IMG/VR virus record: IMGVR_UViG_3300025012_001675 | Span: 1 to 52,966 of that record | DNA from: a virus | Taxonomy: Duplodnaviria > Caudoviricetes | Length of the DNA stretch: 52,966 nucleotides | Direction: 5' to 3' (one strand) | Part shown: positions 2,055 to 18,986 of the stretch, one piece after another | Position numbering within the stretch: the stretch's first letter is position 1 | How the letters are laid out: each line of letters begins with the position of its first letter | The notes under the pieces: model-generated | The model's input: only the letters and a program-made list of their open reading frames with translations | Database searches by the model: none | What the model was told of the DNA's origin: nothing | Program-made: the position numbers and the translations under genes

Positions 2055-2088
2055 ATAAAACCGTCCCACCTAAGTGGAACGGTTTTAT
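2055..2088 (-). terminator. Intrinsic terminator after the deaminase/VOC units
   Basis: Minus strand ATAAAACCGTTCCAC-TTAG-GTGGGACGGTTTTAT; stem with one G-U pair and a U tail. Confidence 0.7.
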
Positions 2089-2116
2089 TATTTCTCATGA
2101 TATTTTTGGATTTATT
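2088..2116 (-). repeat. Degenerate SEC-C-end site, copy 1
   Basis: Minus strand AATAAATCCAAAAATATCATGAGAAATAA (ends K-Y-H-E-K-stop); similar to copies at 2623, 3029 and 52849. Confidence 0.55.
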
Positions 2117-2118
2117 CT

Positions 2119-2607
2119 TTATCCCGCATAAATATATTCGTATGATAGCCGATTATATTCATCTGTTGAATATTCGCATACTCCCTCTTCGTGCCAAAGC
2201 AGGAACTTATCTATTCCAGCATCTAACGCCATACGGCTACATACAGTACAATATGGCTTACCTGATTTCTTAATTTCTCCATTTTCATCCACTCGTGTGA
2301 AATAAAGTTTTGATCCTTCTATCTTTCTCGGATTTCGCTTCAATGTATCCATAATTGTTCGCCATTCGGCGTGCATGCAACATGTTCGATCGAAGTTTGG
2401 TTTTCCAGGACCAAATTCTTTATCGCACGTTCGGTTTTCTTCTTTGTCTAATGGGGGCGCATTATATCCTTGCCCGATCACTTCGCCATCTTTCACAATA
2501 ACCGTTCCACATTTGTCTTTAAGACATAAAGCATTCTTAGCAACTTCTGCTGCTCTGTTCATCCACGAAATCGCTTCTTTCTCTTTTTGATCTTTCAAAT
2601 ATTCCAT
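2119..2607 (-). CDS. dCMP/cytidine deaminase family protein
   Basis: Zn-deaminase motifs GYN, HAE and PYCxxC. Confidence 0.85.
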   Translation of the reverse strand: MEYLKDQKEKEAISWMNRAAEVAKNALCLKDKCGTVIVKDGEVIGQGYNAPPLDKEENRTCDKEFGPGKPNFDRTCCMHAEWRTIMDTLKRNPRKIEGSKLYFTRVDENGEIKKSGKPYCTVCSRMALDAGIDKFLLWHEEGVCEYSTDEYNRLSYEYIYAG

Positions 2608-2622
2608 AGTATTTACGCATTC

Positions 2623-2651
2623 CTACTTCTCATGACACTTTTCAACTTATT
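2623..2651 (-). repeat. Degenerate SEC-C-end site, copy 2
   Basis: Plus strand 2621-2640 TCCTACTTCTCATGACACTT is 19/20 identical to 52847-52866 TCCTACTTCCCATGACACTT; reads K-C-H-E-K-stop on minus. Confidence 0.75.
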
Positions 2652-2655
2652 ACTA

Positions 2656-3039
2656 TTACCGCAAGATTATTGATTTAGTTGCCACTTCAATAATATATCC
2701 ATCTGGATCTCTGAAATCTACGGTGTACGAGCTTCTATCGTTGTACTTCGATTCTAGGGGCCCTCGAATTATGTCTGCTTGAATTTTTAAGAGAAATCCA
2801 GCGACTTCATCTACGACATTCTGTGAAGCCACCAAAAAACATATGCGCCTTGGGCCTATAGTTTTTTCAGGCTTAACATTTTGTTCAACAAAGTATATTT
2901 TGGTTTCTCCGTTATTAAAAGCATTGGATTCAGTTTTATCCCATCCAATAAGTCCGAAGATTCTTTCATAAAACCCTATCGAACGCTCTAAATTAGAGAC
3001 CCAGAATTCTATATGTTTTATAGTCGCTTTATTTTCCAT
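2656..3039 (-). CDS. VOC/glyoxalase family protein
   Basis: IKHIEFWVSNLERSIGFY...FRDPDGYIIEV motifs; its ATG lies inside site copy 3. Confidence 0.85.
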   Translation of the reverse strand: MENKATIKHIEFWVSNLERSIGFYERIFGLIGWDKTESNAFNNGETKIYFVEQNVKPEKTIGPRRICFLVASQNVVDEVAGFLLKIQADIIRGPLESKYNDRSSYTVDFRDPDGYIIEVATKSIILR

Positions 3040-3076
3040 GACACTTTTTCCATTTCTTCTAGTGTAAAAAGTGCCA
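3029..3076. other. Left prophage junction (att site; SEC-C-end copy 3)
   Basis: Minus strand AAGAAATGGAAAAAGTGTCATGGAAAATAA (KKWKKCHGK*) is 24/30 identical to the right junction. Imperfect inverted arms 3039-3054 and 3061-3076 (13/16) surround a 6-bp spacer. Confidence 0.8.
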
Positions 3077-3217
3077 CAGGGGGTTCGGTGCTGGGGAAGC
3101 CACCCGTGCTTTGATTCTCGACTGCTCGTCTGCGAGGAGTCGCAACCGGCCCTTTTGCCTGTTGTGCTTTCCCCCTCGTAGACGAGTAGGCGTATTCGCT
3201 TTTCAATGATCCTATTG

Positions 3218-3454
3218 TCATTTTACTCGTCTGTCAGTTTTTGTCAACTTCTTGGAAGTGGATAAACTGTCGTGGTCTTTTACGGCCTCCCATACCCAAG
3301 TATGGCTTCGTTTGAAGCCATGTAATTCCTTGAGCATCTTCGCAACGGTGCGCGTGTCCAGCCCCTGCTGGTACAGGCGCACCGCTTTGTCTTTCATTTC
3401 CTGAACTTGTTTTTGTTTGAATGTTGATAGAGGCATAGTTGTGAATCCTTTCAC
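3218..3454 (-). CDS. Small HTH DNA-binding protein (possible excisionase/RDF)
   Basis: AVRLYQQGLDTRTVAKML...RSHTWVWEAV helix-turn-helix pattern; next to integrase and att. Start may be the ATG at 3436. Confidence 0.55.
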   Translation of the reverse strand: MKGFTTMPLSTFKQKQVQEMKDKAVRLYQQGLDTRTVAKMLKELHGFKRSHTWVWEAVKDHDSLSTSKKLTKTDRRVK

Positions 3455-3482
3455 TACTATTATATTCCCCTGTCAACTCCTG

Positions 3483-4601
3483 TCAAGTTACGTACTGTGG
3501 ATAAGGCACTTTAGTCTTGGATCGAGTTCGTTGCATGTAGAGCCCGTGCTTTGAGAAGTGCTCGGCCTGTCGCTGAAATTCATCGACGGTAATAGCTTCT
3601 TTGCCCTGGTTTTCGTTCCGGAGGAATGTGACCAGTCCTTGCAATGCATCATCGAATCCTGGGTCGCGTTCCCTTTCTCCGGCGAAGTCGTTTTTACTTT
3701 CCGTAAGGAAGAGGCGTGCGCGCTGTTCCAGCTCTTTACCGTGCATCATCGTGTAGATGGTCGTGCTTTGCACCGAAGCGTGGCCCAGAATATTCATGAC
3801 GTCTGCCGTCGATCCACCGCTCTTAATAATGTGATGTCCGCGGTGGTGCCGGAAGCTGTGGGCATTCATGTACGGCATTTTTGCTCTGTTGCAGTATCGT
3901 CGCAACATTTCGCCCACACCCTTAATCGAGAACCTGTCGCCACATTTCACGCTAGTCACCGATACGAAGAGTGCTCCCGGCTCTTCGAACTTCATGACTT
4001 TCGTAAGGTGATCTCGCTTCTTAAGCCAACGCACCAGATAGTCATTGGTATCGTCTGTCCAGAAGATCTCTCGGAATGGTCGGCGAGACTTTGCTTTCTC
4101 TGTTCGAATTATCGCTCTCTTTTCGTTCAGGTCTAGGTCATCCACGTTAAGGGAGCATACTTCTCCGTTTCGTGCTCCTGTGTCCCAAAGGAGGCCGAGA
4201 ATCGCTAGATTTCTAATGTGTCGTGGGTCGTTGGTGTCTTGCGGAATTGCCGCGACAAGCTGCTTATACTGTTCATCGCTCGCTACGCGAGGTAGTTTTG
4301 GTTCTTTGTCCGGGATCGGAATGAGTTCTTCGTCGATTACTTTGTAGCCTTGCAGCCGGTAGAATTCGAAGAATTTTCGGAGTGCCATGCACTTGCCGAC
4401 GAAGCTATTTCTGTCCCATCCGAGCTCTGCCATGCCATTCAGGTATTCCATCACGTTGCTCAGGGTGATGTGCTCAATGTCGGGGTTGCGGAGAAACAGG
4501 CAGAAGTTTCTCAGCTCGCGGTCGTAGCCGCGCACTGTTGTTTTTTTAACCTTGAACTGTCTCCAGTTCGAGAATTGATTTATTGCGTCTTTAGTTAGCA
4601 T
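3483..4601 (-). CDS. int: Tyrosine recombinase/integrase
   Basis: Catalytic R (TGARNGE), HSFRH, LGH and Y (STTIY), with an N-terminal SAM-like domain. Start set at MLTKD (4601); the longer track ORF runs through a structured leader. Confidence 0.92.
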   Translation of the reverse strand: MLTKDAINQFSNWRQFKVKKTTVRGYDRELRNFCLFLRNPDIEHITLSNVMEYLNGMAELGWDRNSFVGKCMALRKFFEFYRLQGYKVIDEELIPIPDKEPKLPRVASDEQYKQLVAAIPQDTNDPRHIRNLAILGLLWDTGARNGEVCSLNVDDLDLNEKRAIIRTEKAKSRRPFREIFWTDDTNDYLVRWLKKRDHLTKVMKFEEPGALFVSVTSVKCGDRFSIKGVGEMLRRYCNRAKMPYMNAHSFRHHRGHHIIKSGGSTADVMNILGHASVQSTTIYTMMHGKELEQRARLFLTESKNDFAGERERDPGFDDALQGLVTFLRNENQGKEAITVDEFQRQAEHFSKHGLYMQRTRSKTKVPYPQYVT

Positions 4602-4604
4602 ATA

Positions 4605-4810
4605 CACGAAACCCACCAGGATGCGACTCGTGGTGGGTTCGTGCCGTTTCCGTCCGCAGACCGAAGTCAGCGATCGGGACGCGAAGCGCCTTGCAAGGCG
4701 CGCATGCTTCAGTGTTATCCGGGTATCCCCGGCACATAAACCATGCAGAGCCATTTTAGCTCTTATGCGGCTTTCTGTCGAACCCCATTGTGTCGCATCC
4801 TCGACCTTGC
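4605..4810 (-). ncRNA. Highly structured 5' leader of integrase (candidate cis-regulatory RNA)
   Basis: Consecutive minus-strand hairpins with GCAA, UUCG and GAAA loops, and a stem CACGAACCCACCA...TGGTGGGTTTCGTG ending just before the ATG. Confidence 0.4.
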
Positions 4811-5053
4811 GGTCGATTGATCCCTATCGGGAACAATGAGATAGGTATTTTTAGTTAATGTGTTTGACGACAGACCAGTCGACACCAGTCTCCCGCTATG
4901 CCAAACGGAAAGATATTCCTTCGCGCCAAGGAAGTCAAACACGAAAGCCATAGTAATTGAATTTTATAAGTCATTGTCAGACAAGTCCAGATTTTGATCG
5001 CTTCAACCTTTATATTTTCATTATATTTTTATTTGTCAGACCAATTAAAACAC

Positions 5054-5080
5054 AAAAGCCCGGTGCGACGCCGGGCTTTT
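5054..5080 (-). terminator. Terminator after the lysis module
   Basis: AAAAGCCCGGTG-CGA-CGCCGGGCTTTT. Confidence 0.75.
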
Positions 5081-5095
5081 GATAAACTTTCGACT

Positions 5096-5272
5096 TTATT
5101 TTCCTGCAAACGGCTGTGTCGTATCTCCTTTATTGGAAAAGTAGAACGAGAAAGCCATTCCAGCAAGAAGCAAGAATTGATCGCCTGAAATTTTGCCCAA
5201 GAAGAGCGCGCCGATCGTTGCAAGGGCCATCAGGACGAATACAACTTTGCTCGCGGATTTAAGAATTTCCAT
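5096..5272 (-). CDS. Putative holin (58 aa, 2 TM)
   Basis: Not in ORF track. MEILKSASKVVFVLMALATIGALFLGKISGDQFLLLAGMAFSFYFSNKGDTTQPFAGK, directly after the endolysin. Confidence 0.7.
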   Translation of the reverse strand: MEILKSASKVVFVLMALATIGALFLGKISGDQFLLLAGMAFSFYFSNKGDTTQPFAGK

Positions 5273-5274
5273 AT

Positions 5275-5850
5275 TTATTTTAAGGAATTTTTTATTTGTG
5301 CGAGTCCTTCTTCAATTTTTCTCACTCCTTCTTCGACCTGCGAAGGATGTGGTGTTTGCTGACCACCGGCCAACGCGACGATCTCGTCAATTATTTTTTT
5401 GTCGCGTGCCGGGCAATTCGGCTTCTTCGAAAATATTTCGAAGTGGCCGACGATGTGATTGCGGTCAATTGGTATCTGCCATCGTTGGCAAATCTCGCGA
5501 ATCAATGCTGCACTCGACTGCTTCATCGCATCTGTCCAAACATCATCCGGCTTTCCTTCGTGCTCGATGCCAACCGTGTAAAGATTAGGATTAATGTTCG
5601 ACTTTATCAGTTTCCAGACCGGCGCATCTACCCGGCCCGCATGCCAGGCAGTATCTTCTTCTTTCACATACTGATGGACTTCACCGGTTCGTCCGATGCC
5701 GTAGTGCGAGCTCACTAACGAAGCTGGATTTGCGAACCACGAATCGGTGCCGACGAGCGTGCCATCCATAATGTGAATGACCACTCCTTCCGGTCGATAA
5801 CCTTTTCGTCCGGCCCAGAAGTTAGGAGACTTTTTTTGAATGATATTCAT
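5275..5850 (-). CDS. Endolysin, N-acetylmuramoyl-L-alanine amidase (Amidase_2)
   Basis: VVIH, SSHY, AWHAG, GIEHEG, GH...CP motifs. Confidence 0.9.
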   Translation of the reverse strand: MNIIQKKSPNFWAGRKGYRPEGVVIHIMDGTLVGTDSWFANPASLVSSHYGIGRTGEVHQYVKEEDTAWHAGRVDAPVWKLIKSNINPNLYTVGIEHEGKPDDVWTDAMKQSSAALIREICQRWQIPIDRNHIVGHFEIFSKKPNCPARDKKIIDEIVALAGGQQTPHPSQVEEGVRKIEEGLAQIKNSLK

Positions 5851-5854
5851 GGCG

Positions 5855-6082
5855 TTATTTATTAAGGGTAATTAGCAAGTTAAGCAAGGCCGCGATAAGC
5901 CCGCCGACCGAGGCTGTAGTGACAATCCAGAAAAACCGCTTGAGCCAATCGACATCGGTGCCTACCCGCGTCAGTTTCCCATCGATGTGGGGCAGATGGT
6001 TGTTCTTGATCTCGTCGACGCTTTTTTCGAGGTTGTCGAGCCTCTTGTCCTGTATTTGGTTTTGGTAATTTGGGTGTTCCAT
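5855..6082 (-). CDS. Coiled-coil protein with C-terminal TM (XhlA-like lysis accessory)
   Basis: 75 aa, C-terminal hydrophobic helix, located in the lysis module. Confidence 0.55.
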   Translation of the reverse strand: MEHPNYQNQIQDKRLDNLEKSVDEIKNNHLPHIDGKLTRVGTDVDWLKRFFWIVTTASVGGLIAALLNLLITLNK

Positions 6083-6129
6083 AACGGATTTGCTTTTTGA
6101 ACCAAGTGTAAGCTACAACACAAGGGTCT

Positions 6130-6303
6130 ATGTCTACAGCTCAAAAAAGATTATTTGCGCTAATCGCGGTGCTTGCGGTGGTGAGTCTCGGCATCGGGCT
6201 TTATCTATTGTTGAATTTCGACCCGATGGTGCGAGATGCTGTTCAGTCAGACAAGCTCCGGGAAATGCGCCAGCAAATTGAACCGAAGCCTTCATTACCG
6301 TAA
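6130..6303 (+). CDS. Small single-TM membrane protein (57 aa), opposite strand
   Basis: Not in ORF track. MSTAQKRLFALIAVLAVVSLGIGLYLLLNFDPMVRDAVQSDKLREMRQQIEPKPSLP fills the gap between minus-strand genes. Confidence 0.55.
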   Translation: MSTAQKRLFALIAVLAVVSLGIGLYLLLNFDPMVRDAVQSDKLREMRQQIEPKPSLP

Positions 6304-9300
6304 TCCCTGCCTCATATGCTTCAGGTCTGTCTGCTGAAGTTCCTCAGTCGGGAACATTTGTCCGATCGTTGCGAGCGGGTCTTCTTTGCCTGTGCGAATT
6401 GAGCGGAGACTGTCTTTCGTCAGCTTCAGATTAAGCTGGGGTGTTGTTCCTTTCCGCTCCGCTTCCCCGACTTGTTCGTCGTAAACCGACCTTTGCAGCC
6501 TGGCAATGTCTTGCGGCTGGAATGTCACCGACGAACTTATTTTTTGCGCTTCCTGCGGATCATCTTGGGCGAGGTATGGCAGGATGTCCGGCAATATCTT
6601 TTCCGCTGATGCGTTCCAGTTTTCAATGATTGCCGTCGCAGTTTTTATATCGTTCTCCTCAATCGCCCGCTTAGCCTGCTCGCGCGCGGTGCTGTATCCG
6701 ACCACCGCTTCGTCTTTCAGATTCCATGCTTGATTTCGCTTCTCGCCTCCGGCGGATCGGTAGAATCGGCTGGCGGTGCTTTGCAGAATTTTTGCCGGGT
6801 CTATTGCTTCACGGCCGAAACCTCCAAGGAGGCCGCCAAGCCCATAGGCCATCTTCATTGGCGAAACACCGAGCGCTCGACCTACGACCACCGCCGCCTG
6901 CGGTGTTTTTTCGTCGTACTGCTCGGTTGGCGAAACTTGTTCGAGGCGTCTAGGAACAATCGGGCCTCCGGTGAAGAATGATTGATTCGTAGCAAGTTCT
7001 ATTGGAGTACGCAGAATCGGAGGCATCGCTCCGGAAAGGAATTGGGTCACGGATAGCTCTCCATCACGCGTGAATGGGATCGGAGCCAGTTGACTCATCC
7101 ATTCCAATGCGAGCTTGCTGAAGTTGCTCGGCTCGCCTTTGCGGACATAGTCGAGGGCGTACTCGATCGGGTTATAGAAGATCTGCCCGACGTCGCCTTT
7201 GGGAATCAGCACCATCTTAGGCACGCGATTGCCTTGCTCGTCCTTTTCTTCACCGACAATGATTGGGAAATAGGTATCTTTGATCCAGCGAGGCACATCT
7301 TCATAGAGGTCTGGAAAATTCAGGGAGTTCCAGAAGTATGTCGTCACGCCTGGCGCAACGATCAATGCGCCCGCTTTTGCTGAGGCTTTGACGGGACTTT
7401 CTTTAAACACGCGGGCTGTGTTGAGCAGTGCCTGCCATCGCGCATTCACAAATGGCACCCACATATTTATGATTCGCATCTCTTGACCGGCTTTGGCAAA
7501 ATCAATCGTAGCGTTGCGGGCTTCAAATGCTGCCTCGAAGCCAGTTGCTCCCCCCTTCAGCGCGCGCTTGTACACTCCAAGGCGAGGCGCGAGTTCTATG
7601 GCTTCAGCGAAATTGCTTATAAGATTGAAGGGGTTGACGACCGCTTTGGTTCGTTTCCACCATGTTGGCTCAAACAATTGTTTCTTCACGCCGCTGATCT
7701 CGCGTGCCCCCTGAATGAATCCACCAAAACCTCCGCCATCGCGACTGAATTCTTCCAGCAGTTTTGAGTCCCAGCCAAATGCCCCTTTGAGACCTTGAGC
7801 AAAACCAGTGATCCAATCGGCCGGGTTGAAGCCGTACTTCGAAGTCATGACTGCCATCTGTGCATCACGCACGGCGTTGGAAAGCGAGAACGGTATATAT
7901 AGTGTGGTCGCTCCTTTCCTGAACGCACCGGAGGTAAACTTTACAAAGTTTCCCAGCATGCCAGCTTCGACCTCATTCATCTGATGCATTGCCCAAGAAA
8001 GCTCTTCGGGTACAACCCACTTCGTGTTCTTTCCATCCACGAATACGCTGATGGAACCCCAGCCTTTTGGTACACGCGCATCTTTGGCCAGAGGCTGTAT
8101 AAGCTCTTTGGCTTCCGGCAACACTTCACGGATGTTGATGAGTTTGCGGGCTACGTCGTTGCGCTTGGCAAGGTTTACCGCGTTCGATAGTTTGTCGATG
8201 ATTGCTTCAAATGGGTCGCGGATTATTTTTTCCGTACCTTCAAGGCCTTTAACGATACCTTGCTTGCTTACCGAGAAGATCTCGCCGCCTTTCGGCAGAC
8301 TGTCTACGAATGCGGAGTCCGGCAAATAATCGAGGACTTGGAACGGAATCCAGTGTTTATTTTTTACTACGATCGAATTGTATGCCTGCTTCGATATAAG
8401 TCCCGATTCTGCAGCTGGCCGGAGTATCGCTTCGTCTGCCCATTTCTGTATCGCTTGTTCTGCCGCTTCAAATTGTTTGAATATGCCAGGGCCAACTTTT
8501 GTTTTCAGTTCGTCCATAGCTTGCTTTGCTGTATCGGCCGTAACTCCGGCAGGATTGGCAAATCCACGCTCGGCTCGTTCAAGAGCTCGGCGCGACAAAA
8601 CAAAGCGCGTGAAGTCGGCGCGTTCTTTTCTCAATGGTGAGATGACTTTTTGTAGATCGTTTAAGAAAGACTCCACCGTCCCCATGCGTCCCGCGTACAT
8701 TCGCGCCGCGGTGTATGCACTTGAGTTAATATCGATGGGCTTTCCGGCCATGTCGCTCACCATTTCCTCGAACCGTTTGATTGGTGCAAAGCGATCGCTG
8801 AATGCTTCGGTGAATTTTTTCGGTGCGCCCTTTATCCACTCAAGTAAATTTTTTGGCGTGCTTGTTTTTCCAACCATGCCGTCAATGGCTTCCAACGCAC
8901 TCCCTTTCGGGGAATCCGGAACTCCTGATAACGGCACCTCGGTGGATATGCGAGGAGGGGTTGAGGGTGGAGGTGTTAGCTCGTCAGCCCTTGGTTTTGG
9001 CGGCGCTACTTTCTTTCCTGCCTTTATAACAGGGTGTCCTTTTGAATTGACACTATCCAATGCGCCTTCCGCCGCTGAAGTGCGATTGGTGGGTGTGCCT
9101 GCTTCAATCTCTTTGATCGCCTGTTCGCGGGCTTTTATAAATTCTTCGCCTTGATCCGATACCCCTTTGTCTTTTTTTGCCAGATCAATAAGCTCTGATT
9201 CTCTTTTTTCAATATCCTTTTTCATTAGACCCAATAATTCGTCGCCCTCTTTACCTTCAACTGCTATTTCTAATTTTCGCTTAAGCTCAGGCAAGGACAG

Positions 9301-10008
9301 ATCGGCGTTTTCAAATTCCATCAGGTTACGCCCTTCTTTCTCAAAATAATTAACTGGCTTCACTGATTTGATAACTTCTTCCGCGGTCTTCACCGCTTCC
9401 GTGATCGGCTTCGCTTCTTTAGCAATGGCGATGCCTGCTTTTTCCACGAGCTTTTCCCCGCCTTCTTTAATAGCTTGTTCGGCAAGTTTCTTCCCGCCTT
9501 TTTCTACAATGAGCTTAGCGACGTCATCGCCGTATCTTTTGATGAGTTGTTCACCGAGTTCTTCCGCTACTTTCTTCTTCGGAATGCCGGGGACGATATC
9601 AAGTGCGGTCAAGGCAAAACCGAGTGGCAGCCCATACTTCTTTGATGCTTTCTCGCTGCCGCCGAATGTTTTAATTGTTTCTTCTCCGGTTCCGCGTATG
9701 TCCTTAATAGGCTTATCGCCCATAAGGAACTTTTCCAGCTTCGGAGCCACTCCTGTGCCAGGTATAAATTCTTTTTGATCCTGAAGCGAGAGCATCGCCG
9801 AAGCCGCTGCGCGATTGGGGGCACGAAGAACATCTTTGCCAAAATTCAAGACCGCCATTCCGACTGTCTTCGTTGCCCCCGGCAATTCGCGCACAAAGTC
9901 CCGCACGCGTACTTGGTCAGGTACGGGTGCGAAAAAGTCGCCGATAGTCTTCTTTGTTTTCTCGGCCGCTTTCTTGAAAGGTGATGTTATTTTGTTCCAG
10001 AAATTCAT
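6295..10008 (-). CDS. Large internal-virion/ejection protein with LPD38-like C-terminal region
   Basis: ~1237 aa; C-terminal TNQSFFTGGPIVP...PTEQYDEKT...LGVSPMK pattern recalls large polyvalent phage proteins; sits at the end of the virion module. Confidence 0.6.
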   Translation of the reverse strand: MNFWNKITSPFKKAAEKTKKTIGDFFAPVPDQVRVRDFVRELPGATKTVGMAVLNFGKDVLRAPNRAAASAMLSLQDQKEFIPGTGVAPKLEKFLMGDKPIKDIRGTGEETIKTFGGSEKASKKYGLPLGFALTALDIVPGIPKKKVAEELGEQLIKRYGDDVAKLIVEKGGKKLAEQAIKEGGEKLVEKAGIAIAKEAKPITEAVKTAEEVIKSVKPVNYFEKEGRNLMEFENADLSLPELKRKLEIAVEGKEGDELLGLMKKDIEKRESELIDLAKKDKGVSDQGEEFIKAREQAIKEIEAGTPTNRTSAAEGALDSVNSKGHPVIKAGKKVAPPKPRADELTPPPSTPPRISTEVPLSGVPDSPKGSALEAIDGMVGKTSTPKNLLEWIKGAPKKFTEAFSDRFAPIKRFEEMVSDMAGKPIDINSSAYTAARMYAGRMGTVESFLNDLQKVISPLRKERADFTRFVLSRRALERAERGFANPAGVTADTAKQAMDELKTKVGPGIFKQFEAAEQAIQKWADEAILRPAAESGLISKQAYNSIVVKNKHWIPFQVLDYLPDSAFVDSLPKGGEIFSVSKQGIVKGLEGTEKIIRDPFEAIIDKLSNAVNLAKRNDVARKLINIREVLPEAKELIQPLAKDARVPKGWGSISVFVDGKNTKWVVPEELSWAMHQMNEVEAGMLGNFVKFTSGAFRKGATTLYIPFSLSNAVRDAQMAVMTSKYGFNPADWITGFAQGLKGAFGWDSKLLEEFSRDGGGFGGFIQGAREISGVKKQLFEPTWWKRTKAVVNPFNLISNFAEAIELAPRLGVYKRALKGGATGFEAAFEARNATIDFAKAGQEMRIINMWVPFVNARWQALLNTARVFKESPVKASAKAGALIVAPGVTTYFWNSLNFPDLYEDVPRWIKDTYFPIIVGEEKDEQGNRVPKMVLIPKGDVGQIFYNPIEYALDYVRKGEPSNFSKLALEWMSQLAPIPFTRDGELSVTQFLSGAMPPILRTPIELATNQSFFTGGPIVPRRLEQVSPTEQYDEKTPQAAVVVGRALGVSPMKMAYGLGGLLGGFGREAIDPAKILQSTASRFYRSAGGEKRNQAWNLKDEAVVGYSTAREQAKRAIEENDIKTATAIIENWNASAEKILPDILPYLAQDDPQEAQKISSSVTFQPQDIARLQRSVYDEQVGEAERKGTTPQLNLKLTKDSLRSIRTGKEDPLATIGQMFPTEELQQTDLKHMRQGLR

Positions 10009-10015
10009 AGTAGTT

Positions 10016-11110
10016 TTAGACTCCAATACGGAAGAGCCGTCCGAGGAATCCGCCAACGCCTCCTGCGGTTTTAATTCGCCATTCGTCGTCAATTATTTCT
10101 GAGGCCGACTTCTTTGAATCAGTAAACTGGACGCTTCCATATACCTGCTTCAGCTGTTCAGCGTTGTATCCTTCTTTCCAGGCGTCGCGGACTTCTCGTC
10201 TGAAAGTGCTCTCGGCAGTCGTGCCGGATGCCTGGGCCGGAGCTGACGCTTTTTCAGGGGACTGTTTTCTGAGGTATGCGATTTCAGATTCAAGCTGAAC
10301 GGCCAAGTCGCCGCTATAGCCCAATCGAGTCGGATCATTGATGCCTTGACTCATCAAGCGTTCAGCCGTGGCTCTTAGAGATGGGTCGGGCTCCAAGCCT
10401 TGATCTATTCGGGCAGAGAACCTTTCACCAGCCGTGCTGTTGCCGTTCCCGCTGGATGCCTCTTTTGCCCTTTGATCGGCTTCCTGGAGCTTGAGCATAA
10501 ATTCCGCCTCCCAATGCTGATCGTCGCTCTCGCGGTCCAGTTCGCTTCGAAGAGTGTCATTGTAATCGCTCATCTGCTTTGTCAGACTGGCTAGGTTGTA
10601 TTTAAGCTCGTCGACTTCGCGCTCTTTTTCACCCGTCTCAGCCGCCACCTTTTTGGTTACTTCGTCGAGCGTGCTGTTGTATTCCCCCGCAAGACTGTTT
10701 CGCTCGTCCACATAGTTATTGATCGTGGAATTTGCCAGCCGTTCAATCTCCGAAGACTCGCCGGTAATTGTTGCCGCCGAATAGTACGGATTGCGTCGAG
10801 TCTTGCTGATTGACTCGTCGCGAGTTCCTTTTTCACCCGCAATTTTTGAATCGAGATTTGCGATTTTTGTTTTAATGTCCCCAAGGCCGCGCGTGTTGTA
10901 CTCTTGATCGTAGCGGGTCGTGTAATAATTCTTGAGCGCGCTCTGCGCTGAATCCAATTTTTGCTGAGCCGTGCCGATCTGAGTCTGAAGAGACGACAAA
11001 TCGTAGCCGGCCGAGTCTGTTCCATCCGGTGCGTTTGCCGATGTCGGCCTGGCGAAACTTTTGCGAAGATCTGCAAACTGCTTTTCAAATTGTGTCCAGT
11101 CAATAGCCAT
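10016..11110 (-). CDS. Coiled-coil virion (probable ejection) protein
   Basis: 364 aa, helical/coiled-coil, in the structural module. Confidence 0.45.
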   Translation of the reverse strand: MAIDWTQFEKQFADLRKSFARPTSANAPDGTDSAGYDLSSLQTQIGTAQQKLDSAQSALKNYYTTRYDQEYNTRGLGDIKTKIANLDSKIAGEKGTRDESISKTRRNPYYSAATITGESSEIERLANSTINNYVDERNSLAGEYNSTLDEVTKKVAAETGEKEREVDELKYNLASLTKQMSDYNDTLRSELDRESDDQHWEAEFMLKLQEADQRAKEASSGNGNSTAGERFSARIDQGLEPDPSLRATAERLMSQGINDPTRLGYSGDLAVQLESEIAYLRKQSPEKASAPAQASGTTAESTFRREVRDAWKEGYNAEQLKQVYGSVQFTDSKKSASEIIDDEWRIKTAGGVGGFLGRLFRIGV

Positions 11111-11114
11111 AGAT

Positions 11115-11327
11115 TTATATATTTGGTTTGGCTTCCGTGATCCGGCCAGTTTTCAAGTCAATGTCATGCTTTCTGTTCGGATCGAGTCTGTACTTGGGAA
11201 AGCGACTCATGATGTATTGCTGTTTTTGCACTTCTAAAGCCTGCGTGATGAGCTGGTGTTGATGAATAAGCTCCTGCCGTTTGCGGAGTTCTTCAAGGTC
11301 TGTTTTGTCTAATTTTTTTGTAAACAT
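11115..11327 (-). CDS. Hypothetical phage protein
   Basis: 70-aa ORF in operon context. Confidence 0.55.
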   Translation of the reverse strand: MFTKKLDKTDLEELRKRQELIHQHQLITQALEVQKQQYIMSRFPKYRLDPNRKHDIDLKTGRITEAKPNI

Positions 11328-11370
11328 GGTATGGATGCCAATTGTTTTTTAATTGATCGACCTTTTATTG

Positions 11371-12480
11371 TTAGATGTCATCGAACCAAGCGACTGCATG
11401 CCAGCTGAACCCGTTGTAAATCATGAGGCGTCCGCCCGATCCCATTCCGCTCGGACTGGGATCGTAGTACATCTCGCCGTTTGCAGGGCTGGCTGGTTCA
11501 TTTGTTCCGATTCGAAACGATGTTTGGACATCGACGAAGCCACCCGAAATTGCGTTGTTCCCGTAGAGGCGCAGAATGTCGTTTCCGCTCGATGCTTTGA
11601 AGAAGATGCGGTCGTTGATGGTCGTGTCTATGACGAGTGGCCGGTTACCCGAAGTATCGACCCACATTCGGGCGTATCCGTTTGCGCCGTCGTCGAGCAT
11701 CAATCCGTGGCCTGGCCCTGCCTGGATGCCGTAAATCGGTGTCCCTCCTATGTCGCGGAGATAACCGATCCTTATGCCGCCATATGGGGTGGAGAGATAT
11801 CCGGTCGAAGTCAGATTGATTTGCCCTGCTGTGATCTTGGTCGCACTGACGCTGCCGATCTTGGCATCGTCGACCGCGAGGTTGCCTATCTTCGCGTTGG
11901 TGACTGCCAAGTCTTGAATCTTTGCCGCGCTTACGGCCAAGTTTTCGATATTGGCATTTTTTACTTCCGCCGATCCGATCTTTACCGAGGTGATTTGCGC
12001 GTCTCCGATTTTGGCCGTCTGGATTGTTCCATCCACTATTTTCGCGTTGGTGACGATGGCATTGCCGAGATGCGCGTTTTGAATTACACCCGTGCCGACA
12101 TGAGCCGATATGATCACAGCGTCTTCTATCTGCGCGGACAGGGTCACCACCGCTTCGGTTTGGATTAATTTTGATGCGGTAACCGAGCCATTTTTTATTT
12201 TAGCCGTGGCCACCGCAGCATTTGCGAGTTTCTGTTCAGTGACTGCGAGTGCATCAAGATGCTCGGTAAGGATGGCTTGATCGATTATTTTTGCCGAGCT
12301 GACCGAATCGTCAGCCAGGGCAAGAGTTCCGATCGCTCCGGACTTGATCTGTACGGAGTCAATCGATGCGGGTGCGAGCAATGGCGAACTCTGTCCGTCG
12401 TGGGTGTGCGGCGGAACTTCCGGAAATGGCTGATCGTCCACTTCTTGGTTGCCGAATATTTTTTGCAAGAATTCGCTCAT
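11371..12480 (-). CDS. Tail fibre/spike-like protein with 10-residue xAKI repeats
   Basis: Repeats such as VTNAKIVDGT, IQTAKIGDAQ, VSAAKIQDLA; C-terminal NGEMYYD...IYNG..W motif. Confidence 0.65.
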   Translation of the reverse strand: MSEFLQKIFGNQEVDDQPFPEVPPHTHDGQSSPLLAPASIDSVQIKSGAIGTLALADDSVSSAKIIDQAILTEHLDALAVTEQKLANAAVATAKIKNGSVTASKLIQTEAVVTLSAQIEDAVIISAHVGTGVIQNAHLGNAIVTNAKIVDGTIQTAKIGDAQITSVKIGSAEVKNANIENLAVSAAKIQDLAVTNAKIGNLAVDDAKIGSVSATKITAGQINLTSTGYLSTPYGGIRIGYLRDIGGTPIYGIQAGPGHGLMLDDGANGYARMWVDTSGNRPLVIDTTINDRIFFKASSGNDILRLYGNNAISGGFVDVQTSFRIGTNEPASPANGEMYYDPSPSGMGSGGRLMIYNGFSWHAVAWFDDI

Positions 12481-12484
12481 AGCT

Positions 12485-13927
12485 TTATAAGATTCCTATT
12501 GGTTCGAAGTAGGTGCTTGCGGCGACAATCTCTGGCGTGTTATTCCCTGAGGGGTGTAAATCAAACGCCAGTTCGAATGTTTCGCCTTTGCCTTTTTCTT
12601 CTTCCTCCTCATCTCCGGTTTCGACCGTGAACACCACTTTGGTATTGCCTTCTTTGTCAAAGCTGTCTGCTCCGTCTTCGAGGTATGCCTGCTTCCATTC
12701 ACCCTGCTCATTAATGCGGTAATAAGTTTTTAGCCAGCACTGAGAAGGCAGGGGTTTGGTCAGAAGTTTGATGTGACGGAAGCCTTTCTGTAATTCCGGT
12801 TCGCCAGCATCGAAGACCAGTCCTTCATATCGTGCATCGGCTTTATTGTCAGGATCGACTGTATCCACGCCGTATGTTGATCCGTCTTTCCACGATGCGA
12901 AGGGCTGATCTCCGTATACCGTCACCGCGCCAATTTCAACGTCGGTGAGTTTGCCGTGTGAAGGAACATATTCGAGGTTCATCGAATAAGGTTCGTTTTT
13001 GCTTAACCGTCCGTAGGAATACAGTCCGCATTTATCTGAGCCTGTTACTCCCATTAGAGCTACGCCTTTAAGGTTGGCTGCCGCTCCGGGGTTTACCCAT
13101 CCGCCGCCGGGGAATGCTTTGAAACGCAAAATGTTTACCGTGTCCCAGTAGTAGAGTCCCCCGCTGATGCCTGCCTGCACCATGATGAAGTCGGTTTGGA
13201 TCATCGCGTTCACTCCCTTTTCTGCAATCATTCGGCGGAGAATCCATGAGGGTTGCTGCTTATCCCATGTCCACAGCCAGCCTTCTTCGATCTTGTCGCC
13301 TTTGGTCGAACCGATAATCGCGATCTGGTCCTGAGGTAGTAAAGTTTTGGTGCGGTTGCCCGCGATAAGATCGAGTGCTTGATTGTTGAAGTTGCCTTCA
13401 TAATCCACCAGTGCGATGTATCGGCCGTCGCAAATCTGGAGAACGCCAACCGCTATCGTCATGGTGTGCCATGCGGGATCGCCGTTTAATGTGCCGAATG
13501 TTTCCACGCCTCCGGGGAACGAGCCGGAGAACGGAATACGTTTGAGCTTTGTCTCGGTTGCCCAATAGAGATACGGCACGTAGCTTCCGGACCCGTTGTT
13601 ATTGGTGTACTCAGATGCGCCCATGATCTTGCCGTCGGGGTCGGTGTATCTCAGCACCCATGCTGATGCGGGTGTATCTTTGCTGTAGATATTTCCGGTG
13701 TTGCCGAAGCCGTATAATTTTCCATTTGAAGCTGGCACAAAAAACAGAATAAGGTCAGTGACGACACTCCCCGAATCTTTTTCAAGCGCTTGATTGCACT
13801 TCAGAGTGTCCGCGCCATTTCGAATGTCGAGGCTATAGCCAAACCTGAACGCACCAGCCACGCCCTTATAGGCATCGTCTGCGATACCTCCGCGGAAACC
13901 TTTTATTCTGTATGCATTAAGTGCCAT
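12485..13927 (-). CDS. Tail tubular/head-stabilisation protein (podovirus gp10-like)
   Basis: 480 aa, beta-rich, N-terminal GFRGG, follows the adaptor gene. Confidence 0.55.
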   Translation of the reverse strand: MALNAYRIKGFRGGIADDAYKGVAGAFRFGYSLDIRNGADTLKCNQALEKDSGSVVTDLILFFVPASNGKLYGFGNTGNIYSKDTPASAWVLRYTDPDGKIMGASEYTNNNGSGSYVPYLYWATETKLKRIPFSGSFPGGVETFGTLNGDPAWHTMTIAVGVLQICDGRYIALVDYEGNFNNQALDLIAGNRTKTLLPQDQIAIIGSTKGDKIEEGWLWTWDKQQPSWILRRMIAEKGVNAMIQTDFIMVQAGISGGLYYWDTVNILRFKAFPGGGWVNPGAAANLKGVALMGVTGSDKCGLYSYGRLSKNEPYSMNLEYVPSHGKLTDVEIGAVTVYGDQPFASWKDGSTYGVDTVDPDNKADARYEGLVFDAGEPELQKGFRHIKLLTKPLPSQCWLKTYYRINEQGEWKQAYLEDGADSFDKEGNTKVVFTVETGDEEEEEKGKGETFELAFDLHPSGNNTPEIVAASTYFEPIGIL

Positions 13928-13932
13928 AGTTT

Positions 13933-14580
13933 TTAATCCTGCGGATTACAGTTCTTGTAGAGAAAACGCGAGCTTGTTGCCTGCCCGGTGAATCCGGCCT
14001 CTCCGCCTTCCTCGTCCTGGCGGTCTTTTATTTGCTGAAGAATTGCGGTCGCTTCCAGAATCTGCTTGTCCGCATCTGAGCTTCTGTTCGGTTCTTTCTT
14101 TAGACAGATGCCGAGAGCCAGCTTGATGATCGCTTCTTCCATTTCCTCAGGGGTGATCGGTTCGTCTGTGTCATTCACCAGCGGAATCGGACGCCTGCGG
14201 TAGTAGATATCGATGAGTTTGCCGTCTTCAAGCGGTGTGGGCTTGATCAGGTACTGGTCGCCAAGAATGCAGAACACCCGCTCCCACACATGATTTCCGC
14301 TTTGATAATTTTCAACGCTCGTTTTTGCATGCTCTTGGCCGTCGACTTTGATGAACATCATTCCACCCGGTTTGTAGTCGAAGGGGTTGAAGTAAGCCTC
14401 GACATCTTTCTCGGTCAGCTGAGTTGAGTGGTGGTTGAGAAAGTTCCATTTGGCAAAGTTGCATGCCCGAATAATGGATTTATTAATCCATCTTTTTTTA
14501 TCGACTTCACTCCAAAACCCGGTGGTCTTGGCCGCCGACATTCGTGCGTTGAGGTCTTGTAGGAATTCTTGTAATTGCAT
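13933..14580 (-). CDS. Head-tail adaptor protein
   Basis: WIN...YLIKPTP...IYYRRRPIPLVNDTDEP pattern typical of phage adaptors; start MQLQEF. Confidence 0.6.
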   Translation of the reverse strand: MQLQEFLQDLNARMSAAKTTGFWSEVDKKRWINKSIIRACNFAKWNFLNHHSTQLTEKDVEAYFNPFDYKPGGMMFIKVDGQEHAKTSVENYQSGNHVWERVFCILGDQYLIKPTPLEDGKLIDIYYRRRPIPLVNDTDEPITPEEMEEAIIKLALGICLKKEPNRSSDADKQILEATAILQQIKDRQDEEGGEAGFTGQATSSRFLYKNCNPQD

Positions 14581-14585
14581 GGTAT

Positions 14586-16232: not shown

Positions 16233-16234
16233 AA

Positions 16235-16822
16235 CTACGCTTTGCGTAAGGCAATGAGCGGCACGTTCAGACTCCAATCCGTCGGGCTTGCTGTCGGATA
16301 TGTTGCTGGCAGCGCACCGTAGCTTTGTGTTACCGCATAGCCCAGATACGGCGTGCCAGTCAGTCCGTTGTCAAAACCGAGGAATGTCGCCATCGCATCT
16401 GCGGCAGGAATTGCTGCAAGCACGAGTGCAGTGGTGTCTTGGCCTACAAAAGCAAGCCAGTAGAGTTTCCCGCCCTTGAGCGTGAGATTGATCGTGATCT
16501 CTTTAAGCCCCGTGGTATTAACATCCACCTCGCCCGCATCGAGCACGAGCTTTGCCGGATAGACACTTCCGTCGCCTTTGTCTTCGTACACGCCGAGACG
16601 AGCCTTCGGAGTTGTGCCGCTGGCCAAAGTCGTGACACGAATTGCTATCCGATCAAACTTTTGCGTCTTCGGTACAAAGAATGGAAAGGCGCGCAGTGAG
16701 TTTGCAGACGCTGCCGACTGCGTGGTCACTGTTCCGCCTGTCATGAATGGCCCGAAGTATCTGCCGGTTTTTCTGAACCGCAGGAAGCTGAAGTCTCCCT
16801 GTTGAGGAATAAAATCTGACAT
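16235..16822 (-). CDS. Hypothetical virion protein
   Basis: 195 aa, beta-rich (ARLGVY...LYWLAF), structural module. Confidence 0.5.
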   Translation of the reverse strand: MSDFIPQQGDFSFLRFRKTGRYFGPFMTGGTVTTQSAASANSLRAFPFFVPKTQKFDRIAIRVTTLASGTTPKARLGVYEDKGDGSVYPAKLVLDAGEVDVNTTGLKEITINLTLKGGKLYWLAFVGQDTTALVLAAIPAADAMATFLGFDNGLTGTPYLGYAVTQSYGALPATYPTASPTDWSLNVPLIALRKA

Positions 16823-16828
16823 AGGAGC

Positions 16829-17122
16829 TTATTGCTCAACGATCAGCTCGACTTTGTCGCCAGTGACTTCCGCGTCAATGTAGCCCTTGTTCGCATTGCT
16901 GATGCGGAGCTTCACCGCTTCGCCCGGCTCTAGGGTGAATTTCCCCGCCTGAGCCTGGGGTGCAGATTCTCCGACTTTAATCGCGCCGAGATTTGTGCGC
17001 TTTGCCTTTACGACGAGATCGCACCCCTCTCCGACAGGAATGTCGGGAAGCTGAACGGCAGTGCCTGCGCTGGCTACGGTCGCTTCGTTCACCACGAATT
17101 TTGATTTACTTTCTATCGCCAT
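16829..17122 (-). CDS. Hypothetical virion protein
   Basis: 97 aa, VKA...N...VG...LEPGE pattern, structural module. Confidence 0.5.
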   Translation of the reverse strand: MAIESKSKFVVNEATVASAGTAVQLPDIPVGEGCDLVVKAKRTNLGAIKVGESAPQAQAGKFTLEPGEAVKLRISNANKGYIDAEVTGDKVELIVEQ

Positions 17123-17177
17123 ATCGTTGTGCCTTATGTTTGGTTGATAATGGTTCGACCTTTAACGAGCCGAGAGT

Positions 17178-18928: not shown

Positions 18929-18986
18929 ATCTTGTTGTTAGTTGATTAATTAACTGATAGGAGGTTCGACCTTGCTATTTGAGGGT

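Follow-up and report, generated by a model that had tools for sequence, protein, structure and literature searches.

The 3' end of secA as a probable attachment site for a tailed prophage and small gene units in Patescibacteria

The last codons of the secA gene appear to serve as an attachment (att) site at which both a tailed phage and small promoterless gene units insert, displacing the earlier arrivals, and on comparative sequence evidence we consider this reading fairly probable. It comes from the analysis of one viral DNA record (IMGVR_UViG_3300025012_001675), the whole analysed stretch of 52,966 nucleotides being referred to below as the window. All the genes under discussion are located on its minus strand. 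The features relevant to the argument are the following (PWM, score of the weight matrix described below).

2055-2088, minus: intrinsic-terminator hairpin closing the array (-13.7 kcal/mol, z -5.8, 0 of 200 shuffles as stable), then a T-run
2088-2116, minus: c1, encoding KYHEK-stop, apparently the earliest copy of the gene end and the most decayed (PWM 9.8)
2119..2607, minus: dCMP/cytidine-deaminase-family gene, unit 2 (dCMP_cyt_deam_1, E 2.7e-9)
2623-2651, minus: c2, encoding KCHEK-stop, a presumed displaced older copy of the gene end (PWM 20.2)
2656..3039, minus: VOC (glyoxalase-fold) gene, unit 1 (Pfam Glyoxalase, E 2.5e-10)
3029-3058, minus: c3, attR, encoding KKWKKCHGK-stop (PWM 29.8)
3059..52848, minus: prophage of 49.8 kb (G+C about 0.5 versus 0.37-0.42 in the flank)
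3059..3217, minus: G+C-rich leader of the phage arm, from promoter to attR (from similarity in related loci)
3247-3220, minus: outward sigma-70-like promoter in the phage arm, facing c3 and the units (TTGACA-16-TAAAAT, 11 of 12 consensus positions)
3218..3454, minus: 78-aa protein beside the integrase (from the ORF list)
3483..4754, minus: tyrosine integrase (Phage_integrase, E 5.9e-27, and Phage_int_SAM_1)
52770..52802, minus: inverted repeat and T-run just inside the prophage, a probable terminator for the restored gene (read by eye and from an inverted self-match)
52849-52878, minus: c4, attL, the true end of the ORF that is open to the window edge (PWM 33.9)
52849..52965, minus: 3' end of a SEC-C-motif gene, probably secA, cut by the window edge (Pfam SEC-C, E 2.4e-11)

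The four co-oriented copies of a SEC-C-encoding gene end that the initial annotation had placed at these coordinates were borne out both by reading of the sequence and by statistics. As it had also claimed, c2 matches c4 at 19 of 20 nt; the identity takes in 5 nt past the stop codon. The copy c2 is the only other place matched by the 20-mer of c4, and 100 shuffles gave 0 matches. A degenerate 18-mer made from c2-c4 only, with up to two mismatches allowed, matched the four copies and nothing else, each time on the minus strand, and 0.06 matches were expected by chance; c1 carries two mismatches to the c2-c4 consensus. A 21-nt weight matrix trained on 31 distinct sites of other loci, with this window left out, ranks c1 fourth in the whole window, the best non-copy position on either strand scoring 8.6. 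The copies c4, c3 and c2 are thus far beyond chance; c1 exceeds the background only marginally in score and owes its credibility chiefly to its position. The copies c4 and c3 have an 11-nt identical block in common, and c2 is identical at 21 of 22 positions to the attP core obtained by joining the left part of c3 to the right part of c4. The left flank of c2 is homologous to the flank behind the VOC gene in locus L101, and on the right its flank (TAGGAAT) is similar both to the native end of secA in L108 and to the site before the deaminase gene in L030. The left halves of c2 and c1 retain only about 8 nt of the site, which we counted against units moved by the integrase.

The arrangement of genes between the copies also agrees with the initial description, ORFs and Pfam matches both giving exactly one VOC gene, one deaminase gene and the prophage. 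The VOC start codon (3037-3039) lies inside c3 and its stop 4 nt before c2; the deaminase ATG follows c2 by 15 nt and its stop precedes c1 by 2 nt. The copy c2 is in frame with the VOC gene, behind four stop codons. A single terminator had been proposed after the last, most decayed copy, and a strong hairpin with a T-run is indeed present beyond c1. The expected lack of attC-like hairpins was likewise confirmed, the 56-nt stretches around c1-c4 folding no better than shuffles (z 0.50, 0.83, -0.36 and -0.27). Since no tRNA or tmRNA was found in the window and an Rfam search of positions 1-6000 gave no family near threshold, the target is not an RNA gene.

A tailed prophage of 49.8 kb lies between c4 and c3, which are its ordinary attL and attR. 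The element carries virion and lysis genes of a temperate phage (PHROG matches to the terminase large subunit, 7e-101, the major head protein, 7.8e-39, a head-tail adaptor/portal and an endolysin) and, about 430 nt from attR at one of its ends, the gene for a tyrosine recombinase. Direct repeats bound it at both ends, and the same element is found at the same target elsewhere; in genome G406 the same phage extends over about 49.7 kb from attL to attR. In c4 the host left half, ending in ..CATGG, is joined to the phage-supplied end GAAGTAGGAGC.., while c3 combines the phage left half with the displaced older end. An attL with the same phage-side sequence after the gene end occurs in four other hosts, the gene being SecA in the two where it was read. 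Similarity of the phage arm in 15 related loci ends at c3 (positions 3027-3054), with host-specific sequence beyond. Two relatives (L010 and L011) contain the intact attP form, in which the promoter is followed by the ..KKYKKCHG. codons with the stop, a terminator and the phage genes. Since attP carries the replacement codons, the secA-type gene stays whole on integration. Taken as sequence evidence, these data strongly support the view that in CPR/Patescibacteria a family of temperate tailed phages with a tyrosine integrase targets the final codons of secA and that the old gene end is displaced to the far side of the prophage. Relatives of the integrase were found at 58 loci in genome contigs, mostly in MAGs of Patescibacteria.

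The identity of the cut gene as secA is likely. In more than 30 loci the C-terminus of SecA matches residues 17-38 of the fragment, and two further lysogens of this phage have SecA at attL; the identification remains at this level because the upstream 16 residues are matched in only one relative's gene (loci L091/L095).

The prophage itself is the predicted supplier of the promoter facing the units in this window. Hexamers similar to those of its outward promoter were read by eye at the same place in L010, L011 and L034. The leader between promoter and attR is 92-99% identical in L013-L016, L018 and L026, 85% in L017 and 73-77% in L019-L027, with no Rfam match. The adjacent 78-aa ORF is kept beside the integrase in L008, L013 and L018; the search of its product against Pfam and PHROG gave no family above threshold, and our guess is that it is possibly a DNA-binding or directionality factor. 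The initial annotation had the units expressed from the promoter of the SEC-C gene, a proposal that fails here: since about 50 kb of prophage, with an apparent terminator at its start, lies between, that promoter cannot serve the units in this window, and it is the phage promoter that faces them.

The VOC gene provides the better documented unit. Its subfamily starts in register inside the site in 9 of 14 distinct close loci and in 0 of 14 distant VOCs, and behind the VOC stop there is a site in 4 of the 14 close loci versus 0 of the 14 distant ones. Its neighbours vary both upstream (SecA, phage, HAD, NUDIX, tRNA_bind, GNAT) and downstream (deaminase, LMWPc, a gene that is GatB-like by its first residues, NUDIX, M15). 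The gene is patchily distributed: the protein database holds 195 homologues, and the gene was met in 0 of 401 sampled genomes of Patescibacteria, an empty result that in itself shows little. The same phage, with an integrase 97% identical, adjoins only a 66%-identical VOC in L112 and other genes in L013-L018 and L026. The alternative in which the phage brought the VOC gene as cargo, and c2 would be the real attR, was rejected on account of these differing genes at the phage end. No phage relative with a unit between two internal sites was found, since no locus found with the integrase as bait also matched the attL-end genes.

For the deaminase as a separate unit the case is weaker. Homologues 75% identical to it lie directly after a site in L030 and near an attR-like site in L034, and another homologue is located within the secA array of L109, where it precedes the VOC gene, the reverse of the order in this window; the gene is present in 16 of the 401 sampled genomes. 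More distant homologues (35-65% identity), inspected by eye, show no site within 150 nt on either side. No close relatives of the deaminase were found in viral contigs, and none of the 445-aa flank protein in either genome or viral contigs. The possibility that the VOC or deaminase gene once had a SEC-C tail was also considered and rejected, there being no space from stop to site.

Related genomes contain comparable arrays. Two to four co-oriented repeats occur at 21 loci elsewhere (21 of 131 loci have at least two sites), mostly beginning at the true SecA end, and each interval holds zero to two small co-oriented genes from families such as VOC, NUDIX, HAD, deaminase, kinase-like, GNAT, Ham1 and others. 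Both content and order vary. The initial annotation had called for a scan of relatives for such repeats with variable genes behind SEC-C genes, and since these arrays were found the integron-like reading passes the test set for it beforehand; fixed synteny, repeats at chance frequency and lack of other arrays, any of which it had named as fatal, are contradicted by the changing gene order, by 84 weight-matrix matches on the gene strand versus 5 on the opposite strand in 1.19 Mb, and by the 21 loci. Most arrays were found with VOC or integrase as bait, so that their frequency is biased. In a sample chosen without either bait, another copy lies downstream in 6 of 20 secA-end regions, and the matches number 28 on the gene strand and 1 antisense. 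An even sample gave the exact site in 33 of 401 genomes and two exact copies in only 2.

The first site forms the end of a long SecA-like ORF (607-912 aa; ..GSGKK[YF]K[KQ]CHG.) in L097, L099, L101, L102, L108, L109 and L110, the ORF being cut at its 5' side by the contig end in L099, L108, L109 and L110. Of 105 distinct sites, 22 end long ORFs and 74 are remnants without an upstream ORF, up to 27 nt being kept; co-oriented partial copies of the target are therefore found downstream of the intact gene, as in accretion islands. Two loci, G058 (L149) and L107, contain what look like foreign sites: SecA ends differently there (..KYK[RH]CGLINAP..) and is followed by a copy of the usual SecA-end motif. 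Site-to-site intervals measure 73-1433 nt in 35 of 39 cases, with five below 200 nt and none from 1.5 to 5.5 kb. An ORF of at least 60 aa opens at 32 of 62 in-register ATG sites (52%), compared with 28.7% of all ATGs, a moderate enrichment of true gene starts. The N-termini of these ORFs read M-[GEVA]-[NS]-[KN], as the overlap of site and start predicts.

The scan of 20 unit ORFs assigned 16 to small-enzyme families and gave no phage or integrase family, and neither these ORFs nor the array flanks contain an integrase or a fragment of one; only the full prophage carries such a gene, and no integration module of the units' own, present or past, is seen. A tblastn search with the phage query (E <= 1e-3) detected an integrase in 1 of 72 VOC or random-sample loci (L112, the phage's own), a search that a very distant IntI could escape. 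The claim of exactly one gene per unit gave way to a range of zero to two: some intervals hold two genes or none, which we counted against the unit reading, and in L018 a gene-less interval of 131 nt separates two good sites. Site scores show no steady fall with distance from secA in L097, L102, L108 and L110, and this was also counted against the unit reading. The proposal that the units are promoterless is retained as a judgement from spacing and a promoter scan.

A mechanism consistent with these data would work as follows. The last secA codons would be the attachment site in a group of CPR/Patescibacteria, used by the phage and also by units with zero to two promoterless genes. The first part of a unit would be the right half-site (..ATGGNAARTAR), which would close the upstream gene by H-G-K-stop and often, in the neighbouring frame, give the unit its own ATG, and its last part would be the left half-site (..AARAARTG); the unit-site crossover is expected inside AAGTGTCATG. 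Each insertion at the gene end would shift older units downstream and produce a co-oriented array with one terminator, the presumed order of arrival in the window being deaminase, VOC and then prophage. Since the units have no recombinase, the integrase of phages of this family is taken to act on them in trans. Transfer between cells may occur when a prophage excises via a distal copy (attL with c2 or c1) and carries units along. Expression would normally depend on read-through from secA and, after integration, on the outward promoter of the phage arm. One groundwater contig joins a c3-like site to a deaminase start without VOC. In another, the phage arm runs directly into the second site of a host resembling L018, the 131-nt interval of L018 being absent; this joint has only 21 matching letters on one side, at 90% likeness, and is not a simple c3 x c2 product. 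The assembled contigs of public groundwater runs contained no back-joints, and among the loci and contigs examined there was no circular unit, no empty site in an otherwise identical genome and no site-to-site recombinant.

The extra copies could alternatively be scars left by serial integration of full-size elements that were later deleted to one or two cargo genes, nothing small ever having moved alone. For tRNA-targeting elements, serial integration with displaced partial targets is established (tycheposon preprint 10.1101/2020.12.28.424599), the phage family is abundant at the secA site, and the gene-less interval of L018 and the five intervals shorter than 200 nt look like remnants. We nevertheless regard this origin as unlikely: the 20 unit ORFs include no phage-like one and no piece of an integrase, the intervals are confined to 1433 nt or less in 35 of 39 cases with the gap from 1.5 to 5.5 kb empty, the VOC site register is kept in 9 of 14 loci despite differing neighbours, and the unit genes are intact, co-oriented and flush with sites at both ends, a state seldom to be expected after random deletion within a 50-kb element.

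The recombinase of the phage family is the only one shown here to use this sequence, which argues against the movement of units by a host recombinase (e.g. of the Xer type) or by homologous recombination of the 20-30-nt copies, with the phage integrase merely sharing the target. Direct repeats of 21-30 nt can allow deletion or duplication based on homology, but homologous recombination explains the loss of units and not how they came to be inserted initially, in different genomes, with a fixed register; even with the phage-family integrase present in only 1 of 72 loci, as the phage's own, such an explanation seems to us improbable. Already disfavoured, and in our estimate highly improbable, is the view that only c3 and c4 are recombinant while VOC and deaminase are fixed host genes and c2 and c1 chance or convergent junctions arising, for example, from translational coupling. 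The identity of c2 and c4 past the stop, absent from shuffles, the 74 remnants without an upstream ORF, the strand bias of 84 to 5 and the varying gene order and content behind secA all contradict it, and with VOC in 0 and deaminase in 16 of 401 genomes these are not fixed syntenic genes. It could draw on the narrow excess of c1 over the best background (9.8 versus 8.6), on the stop/start overlaps common in compact genomes and on the 'MENK' start, which is a conserved feature of the VOC protein family.

The reading in which phage and units share the secA end can be compared with several known systems. Integrons comprise the integrase IntI, the attI site, the Pc promoter and cassettes bounded by attC sites, imperfect palindromes that are recombined as folded single strands. 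The secA arrays resemble them in having co-oriented, mostly promoterless units of about one gene, varying between genomes, which are bounded by copies of a recombination site and collected at one site behind a promoter-bearing platform, older arrivals being moved away from the promoter. They differ in that no IntI-type integrase was found adjacent, in that the sites are 20-30-nt direct repeats of a coding gene end and not attC-like hairpins, and in that the platform is the essential gene secA, which each insertion would restore, with a phage integrase in trans as the likely recombinase. Integration of temperate phages at a gene's 3' end, with a replacement end supplied by the phage, is well known, and c4, c3 and the 49.8-kb prophage correspond exactly to this; such integration alone, however, leaves c2, c1 and the arrays in prophage-free genomes unexplained. 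Cis-mobilizable elements accreted beside ICEs and the pdif (XerC/D-site) modules of Acinetobacter plasmids are likewise small, site-bounded gene modules without a recombinase that are moved in trans, but their recombinases, sites and hosts differ, and pdif sites, unlike the secA-end sites, occur in alternating orientation and do not belong to a gene. The tycheposon islands of Prochlorococcus arise by serial tyrosine-recombinase integration at tRNA/tmRNA genes (10.1101/2020.12.28.424599). They share with the secA arrays repeated integration at one gene 3' end, co-oriented partial copies of the target and older material pushed inward into a variable island of a streamlined genome; the secA target is in contrast a protein-coding motif whose site supplies stop and start codons, and the units, of 0.1-1.4 kb with zero to two genes, have no integration/replication module. 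Among the titles and abstracts listed by full-text searches of a limited literature collection, none describes attachment at secA or at the SEC-C motif.

The integron-like array proposed in the initial annotation thus stands as regards the arrays at secA, their variable genes, the lack of hairpins and the many starts at the site ATG; since no integrase lies beside the arrays, an integron-type platform integrase does not form part of it. The data point to integron-like gene collecting behind secA. A fuller formulation, which we hold tentatively as a plausible one, is an integron analogue of CPR/Patescibacteria in which secA would provide the platform and promoter, its last nine codons the att site, and a phage both the integrase in trans and the vehicle, with single-gene units, each bearing a fresh gene end and its own start codon, being taken up or left at excision and integration via alternative site copies.

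The genomes of CPR bacteria are tiny, few mobile elements have been recognised in them, and their gene exchange is poorly understood. If the proposed reading is true, a site-specific gene-collecting locus behind secA together with phage integrases would offer a concrete, testable route of gene flow in these organisms, which make up a large portion of the bacterial tree, and an integron-like array would be operating on double-stranded direct repeats of coding sequence instead of attC hairpins. In annotation, orphan 'KKCHGK-stop' fragments and unrelated proteins starting with M-[GE]-N-K flag such arrays. The att site of about 30 nt, which also encodes a zinc-binding motif, and its integrase may possibly be useful for targeted insertion in organisms that are not yet engineerable.

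The window is one entire IMG/VR record and all of its relevant features lie on the minus strand. They are listed here in gene direction, in which the main order is SEC-C end, prophage, VOC, deaminase, hairpin and 445-aa gene:

52965-52849, minus: final 38 codons of a gene with a SEC-C motif (Pfam SEC-C, E 2.4e-11)
3059-52848, minus: prophage stretch of 49.8 kb (G+C near 0.5 versus 0.37-0.42 in the flank)
3483-4754, minus: tyrosine integrase
3247-3220, minus: near-consensus promoter-like site TTGACA-16-TAAAAT in the phage arm, pointing at c3
3039-2656, minus: VOC/glyoxalase-fold gene
2607-2119, minus: dCMP/cytidine-deaminase-family gene
2088-2055, minus: strong hairpin with T-run (-13.7 kcal/mol, z -5.8)
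after the hairpin in gene direction, minus: 445-aa gene with its own promoter-like site

The four repeats of the last SEC-C codons claimed by the initial annotation are present as c4 (52849-52878), c3 (3029-3058), c2 (2623-2651) and c1 (2088-2116), the intervals between the sites on the unit side of the prophage being 406 and 535 nt. The c4 20-mer recurs only in c2 (19/20 identical; none in 100 shuffles), and c1 is the only extra match to the c2-c4 consensus at two or fewer mismatches (chance expectation 0.06). A 21-nt weight matrix trained on sites of other loci only, with the window excluded, ranks the copies first to fourth in the window (c4 33.9, c3 29.8, c2 20.2, c1 9.8), the best non-copy position scoring 8.6. 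The c1 copy is weak by score; it is co-oriented and lies 2 nt past the deaminase stop, and this position and orientation make a chance origin unlikely. Matches to residues 17-38 of the SEC-C gene occur at the SecA ends of over 30 loci, and the 16 residues before them are matched only in one relative's gene (L091/L095); the gene is likely secA.

The copies c4 and c3 mark the two ends, attL and attR, of a prophage whose target is the secA end. Genes for a terminase large subunit, major head protein, adaptor/portal protein and endolysin lie between them. Relatives of its integrase occur in 6 viral contigs and 58 genome contigs, the latter mostly Patescibacteria MAGs. In 15 of these loci the integrase-to-site DNA is 73-99% identical to the window, and the phage-arm similarity ends at window positions 3027-3054, that is, at c3, with host-specific sequence beyond. 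The opposite prophage end was located in four further genomes, in all of which a host gene end leads into the same phage sequence after ..CATGG; the gene was SecA in both of the two that were read, and in one genome (G406) the prophage ends are ~49.7 kb apart, like in the window. Two loci (L010, L011) hold the unintegrated form, with a promoter, a short leader, the ..KKYKKCHG. codons and stop, a terminator and the phage genes. The phage therefore brings its own version of the gene's last codons, and the protein end stays the same after integration. The identical block common to c3 and c4 is AAGTGTCATGG, and the exchange point was placed around TGY-CAY by comparing attL with attR in other hosts. 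The phage family also uses a second, longer SEC-C end type (..KKCG[LM]..EH.. plus ~15 residues; L015/L091 in G005, L017, L023, L025, L034), whose tail is replaced by HGK-stop on integration, shortening the host protein (e.g. L015/G005).

The Trp codon of c3 (KKWKK) resembles that of the host gene of G005, which suggests that the phage site may swap sequence with its hosts. Integrases 90-100% identical to that of the window occur beside differing host flanks (L013-L018, L026, L063) in MAGs labelled Doudnabacteria, Komeilibacteria, Saccharibacteria and 'Gammaproteobacteria', so either the host range is broad or the bin labels cannot be relied on. Phage G+C mostly equals or falls below that of the host; the G+C of this prophage (~0.42-0.56 over 3001-52000), well above that of the host flank (0.37-0.42 over 1-3000), is unusual.

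The units had been supposed to be expressed from the promoter of the SEC-C gene. This fails in the window, where the prophage cuts them off from that gene. An inverted repeat and T-run, as read from the sequence alone, stand at the start of the prophage (52770-52802), and its other end carries the promoter-like site directed at c3, comparable hexamers being read by eye in L010, L011 and L034. We read this as the phage probably restoring transcription of genes normally reliant on secA read-through, which fits the units being promoterless. The phage arm (3059-3247) also contains a roughly 150-nt G+C-rich leader beside attP/attR, 92-99% identical in L013-L016, L018 and L026 and 85% in L017. The free phage form would, by prediction, yield a short transcript ending with the SEC-C codons and a terminator; leader and promoter may represent a small RNA, arm-type binding sites or simply a read-out promoter.

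The scan of relatives that the initial annotation proposed yielded further co-oriented copies by three routes. They lie downstream of integrase relatives in L013 (4 sites), L018 (3-4 sites), L014, L017 and L025. Of 401 Patescibacteria genomes in an even sample, 33 contain the exact 18-nt pattern (36 matches versus 4 for the reversed control), two of them at least twice. At 6 of 20 places examined among these 36 (G001, a second G058 place in the same region, places near contig ends and the last on the list being set aside) at least one further copy follows within 5 kb downstream, and this bait-free sample has 28 matches on the gene strand versus 1 on the other. The loci found via integrase or VOC as bait (1.19 Mb) have 84 matrix matches on the gene strand versus 5. 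At least two sites are present in 21 of 131 loci, a frequency biased by the fact that most arrays were found by bait. Site intervals measure 73-1433 nt in 35 of 39 cases, and the other four, above 5.5 kb, are probably unrelated second matches. Site quality does not fall steadily along the array in every case. All this material is metagenomic and its MAG labels are untrustworthy. In L149 (G058) and L107 a SecA with a different zinc-finger end (..KYK[RH]CGLINAP..) is nevertheless followed by a 13-residue secA-end copy, which duplication of the resident gene end cannot have produced.

Of 105 distinct sites with scores of 11 or more, 22 form the end of an ORF of 300 aa or longer and 74 are ORF-less remnants. 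The ATG of TGY-CAT-GG is in place in 62, and in 32 of these it starts an ORF of 60 aa or more, versus 28.7% of all same-strand ATGs, a generous control that takes in in-frame ATGs within genes. The proteins that start there are unrelated, yet begin with M-[GEVA]-[NS]-[KN] (MENK, MGNK, MVNK, MENN, MESK and others), as the overlap with H-G-K-stop dictates; the conserved 'M[EGKD]NKA' start of the VOC subfamily is the same overlap. The units therefore begin with the right half-site at a fixed register, which is expected from site-specific insertion and unexpected from ordinary rearrangement. Four genes end in frame within a remnant site: an M15 peptidase (L108, 2949-3644, ..KKFTMCHGK), a VOC (L107, 5001-5390, ..KGHGK), a Maf (L018, 2143-2715, ..KKVHGK) and a GNAT (L109, 4523-5011, ..NKIYEK). 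These upstream genes appear to have adopted displaced SEC-C codons as their C-terminus.

In seven loci (L097, L099, L101, L102, L108, L109, L110) a long SecA-like ORF of 607-912 aa, ending ..GSGKK[YF]K[KQ]CHG., has its true end in the first site; its 5' part is cut by the contig end in L099, L108, L109 and L110. Each interval holds zero to two small co-oriented ORFs. Small-enzyme or small-domain families account for 16 of 20 unit ORFs scanned (HAD, LMW phosphatase, five NUDIX, two AAA kinase-like, deaminase, GNAT, Ham1, SUKH, tRNA_bind, M15 peptidase, histidine phosphatase); four have no family and none of the 20 is an integrase or phage protein. An integrase-like gene was found in only 1 of 72 VOC and random-sample loci (L112), where it is the phage itself. 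Variable gene content between the repeats, a further expectation of the initial annotation, is borne out, since both content and order differ between loci. The VOC gene is preceded by SecA, phage, HAD, NUDIX, tRNA_bind or GNAT and followed by deaminase, LMW phosphatase, NUDIX, M15 peptidase or a 474-aa ORF (GatB-like, judged from its first residues only). The order in L109 is secA, kinase-like, NUDIX, deaminase, GNAT, VOC, with the deaminase before the VOC, the reverse of the window.

The VOC has 195 homologues in a large protein collection, mostly in Patescibacteria, and none was found in the 401 sampled genomes; a metagenome scan gave 52 loci. In 9 of 14 distinct loci whose VOC shares 63% or more identity with that of the window (duplicates L098 and L100 dropped), a site scoring 11 or higher contains the VOC start codon in register, and in 4 of the 14 a site follows within 80 nt of the VOC stop. 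Both counts are 0 of 14 at 50-60% identity, in a set without the duplicates L118, L121 and L134 and the untabulated L125-L129, L132, L135-L142 and L144-L148. Upstream of the VOC start, the frame belongs to an intact SecA (an open frame of 834 aa) in L101 only; elsewhere it is a 5-21-codon remnant or another gene's frame (L106, 52 aa; L109, 167 aa), and in L112 what precedes the start is the arm of the window's phage. The window and L101 share a homologous flank between the VOC stop and the following site (c2 in the window). Homologues 58-59% identical in L115 and L116 stand directly behind a tRNA-3'-end-like sequence; tRNA 3' ends are a classical integration target.

The deaminase was found in 16 of the 401 genomes. 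Relatives 75% identical lie directly behind a site in L030 and ~0.9 kb behind an attR-like site in L034, and distant relatives have no site within 150 nt on either side (read by eye, not by matrix). In L074 a 50%-identical deaminase starts right after a tyrosine-recombinase-like gene, judged by its C-terminal residues only. The case is weakest for the deaminase unit and for c1.

The sequence ..TAGGAAT.. directly follows the stop in L030, at the native secA end of L108 and in c2, so c2 is best read as a gene end that would formerly have stood directly in front of the deaminase. Arrival of the deaminase would have displaced the original gene end, now c1 and followed by the terminator, a step that depends on the weakest copy. 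The VOC would have come next, bringing a right and a left half-site that became c3-right and c2-left, and the prophage last, giving c4-right and c3-left. That the units move, by which recombinase and in which vehicle, is inferred throughout. Contigs from public groundwater runs fit this history and are no proof of it. In run X3 a c3-like site is joined to the deaminase start without the VOC (a match of just 21 letters on the short side, at 90% likeness), and in contigs of X1, X3 and X8 a decayed site stands 4 nt before a deaminase start. In an X15 contig the phage arm, with 6 differences over 1440 nt, abuts the second site of a host resembling L018, and the 131-nt interval that L018 has is missing. 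This gene-less interval (L018, 1482-1633) lies between two good sites and is absent in X15 for the same phage/host flank, a presence/absence difference bounded by sites. No circle-type back-joint was reported in the groundwater contigs, and assembled contigs could hardly show one.

The integron-like reading holds for the layout, namely a platform, a single insertion point, co-oriented promoterless units and older units pushed downstream. It does not hold for the machinery: unlike integrons, the SEC-C arrays have no adjacent integrase (1 of 72 loci, the phage's own) and their sites lack hairpin attC character. Serial integration at tRNA/tmRNA genes and tycheposon islands (10.1101/2020.12.28.424599) are similar in process; compared with what is described there, the target here is a coding motif needing restoration, the units have no integration module and the site supplies stop and start codons. 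Among the titles and abstracts listed from the literature library searched, none presents secA or its SEC-C motif as a site of attachment, and none describes such arrays. We file the arrangement as site-specific accretion at the 3' end of a gene.
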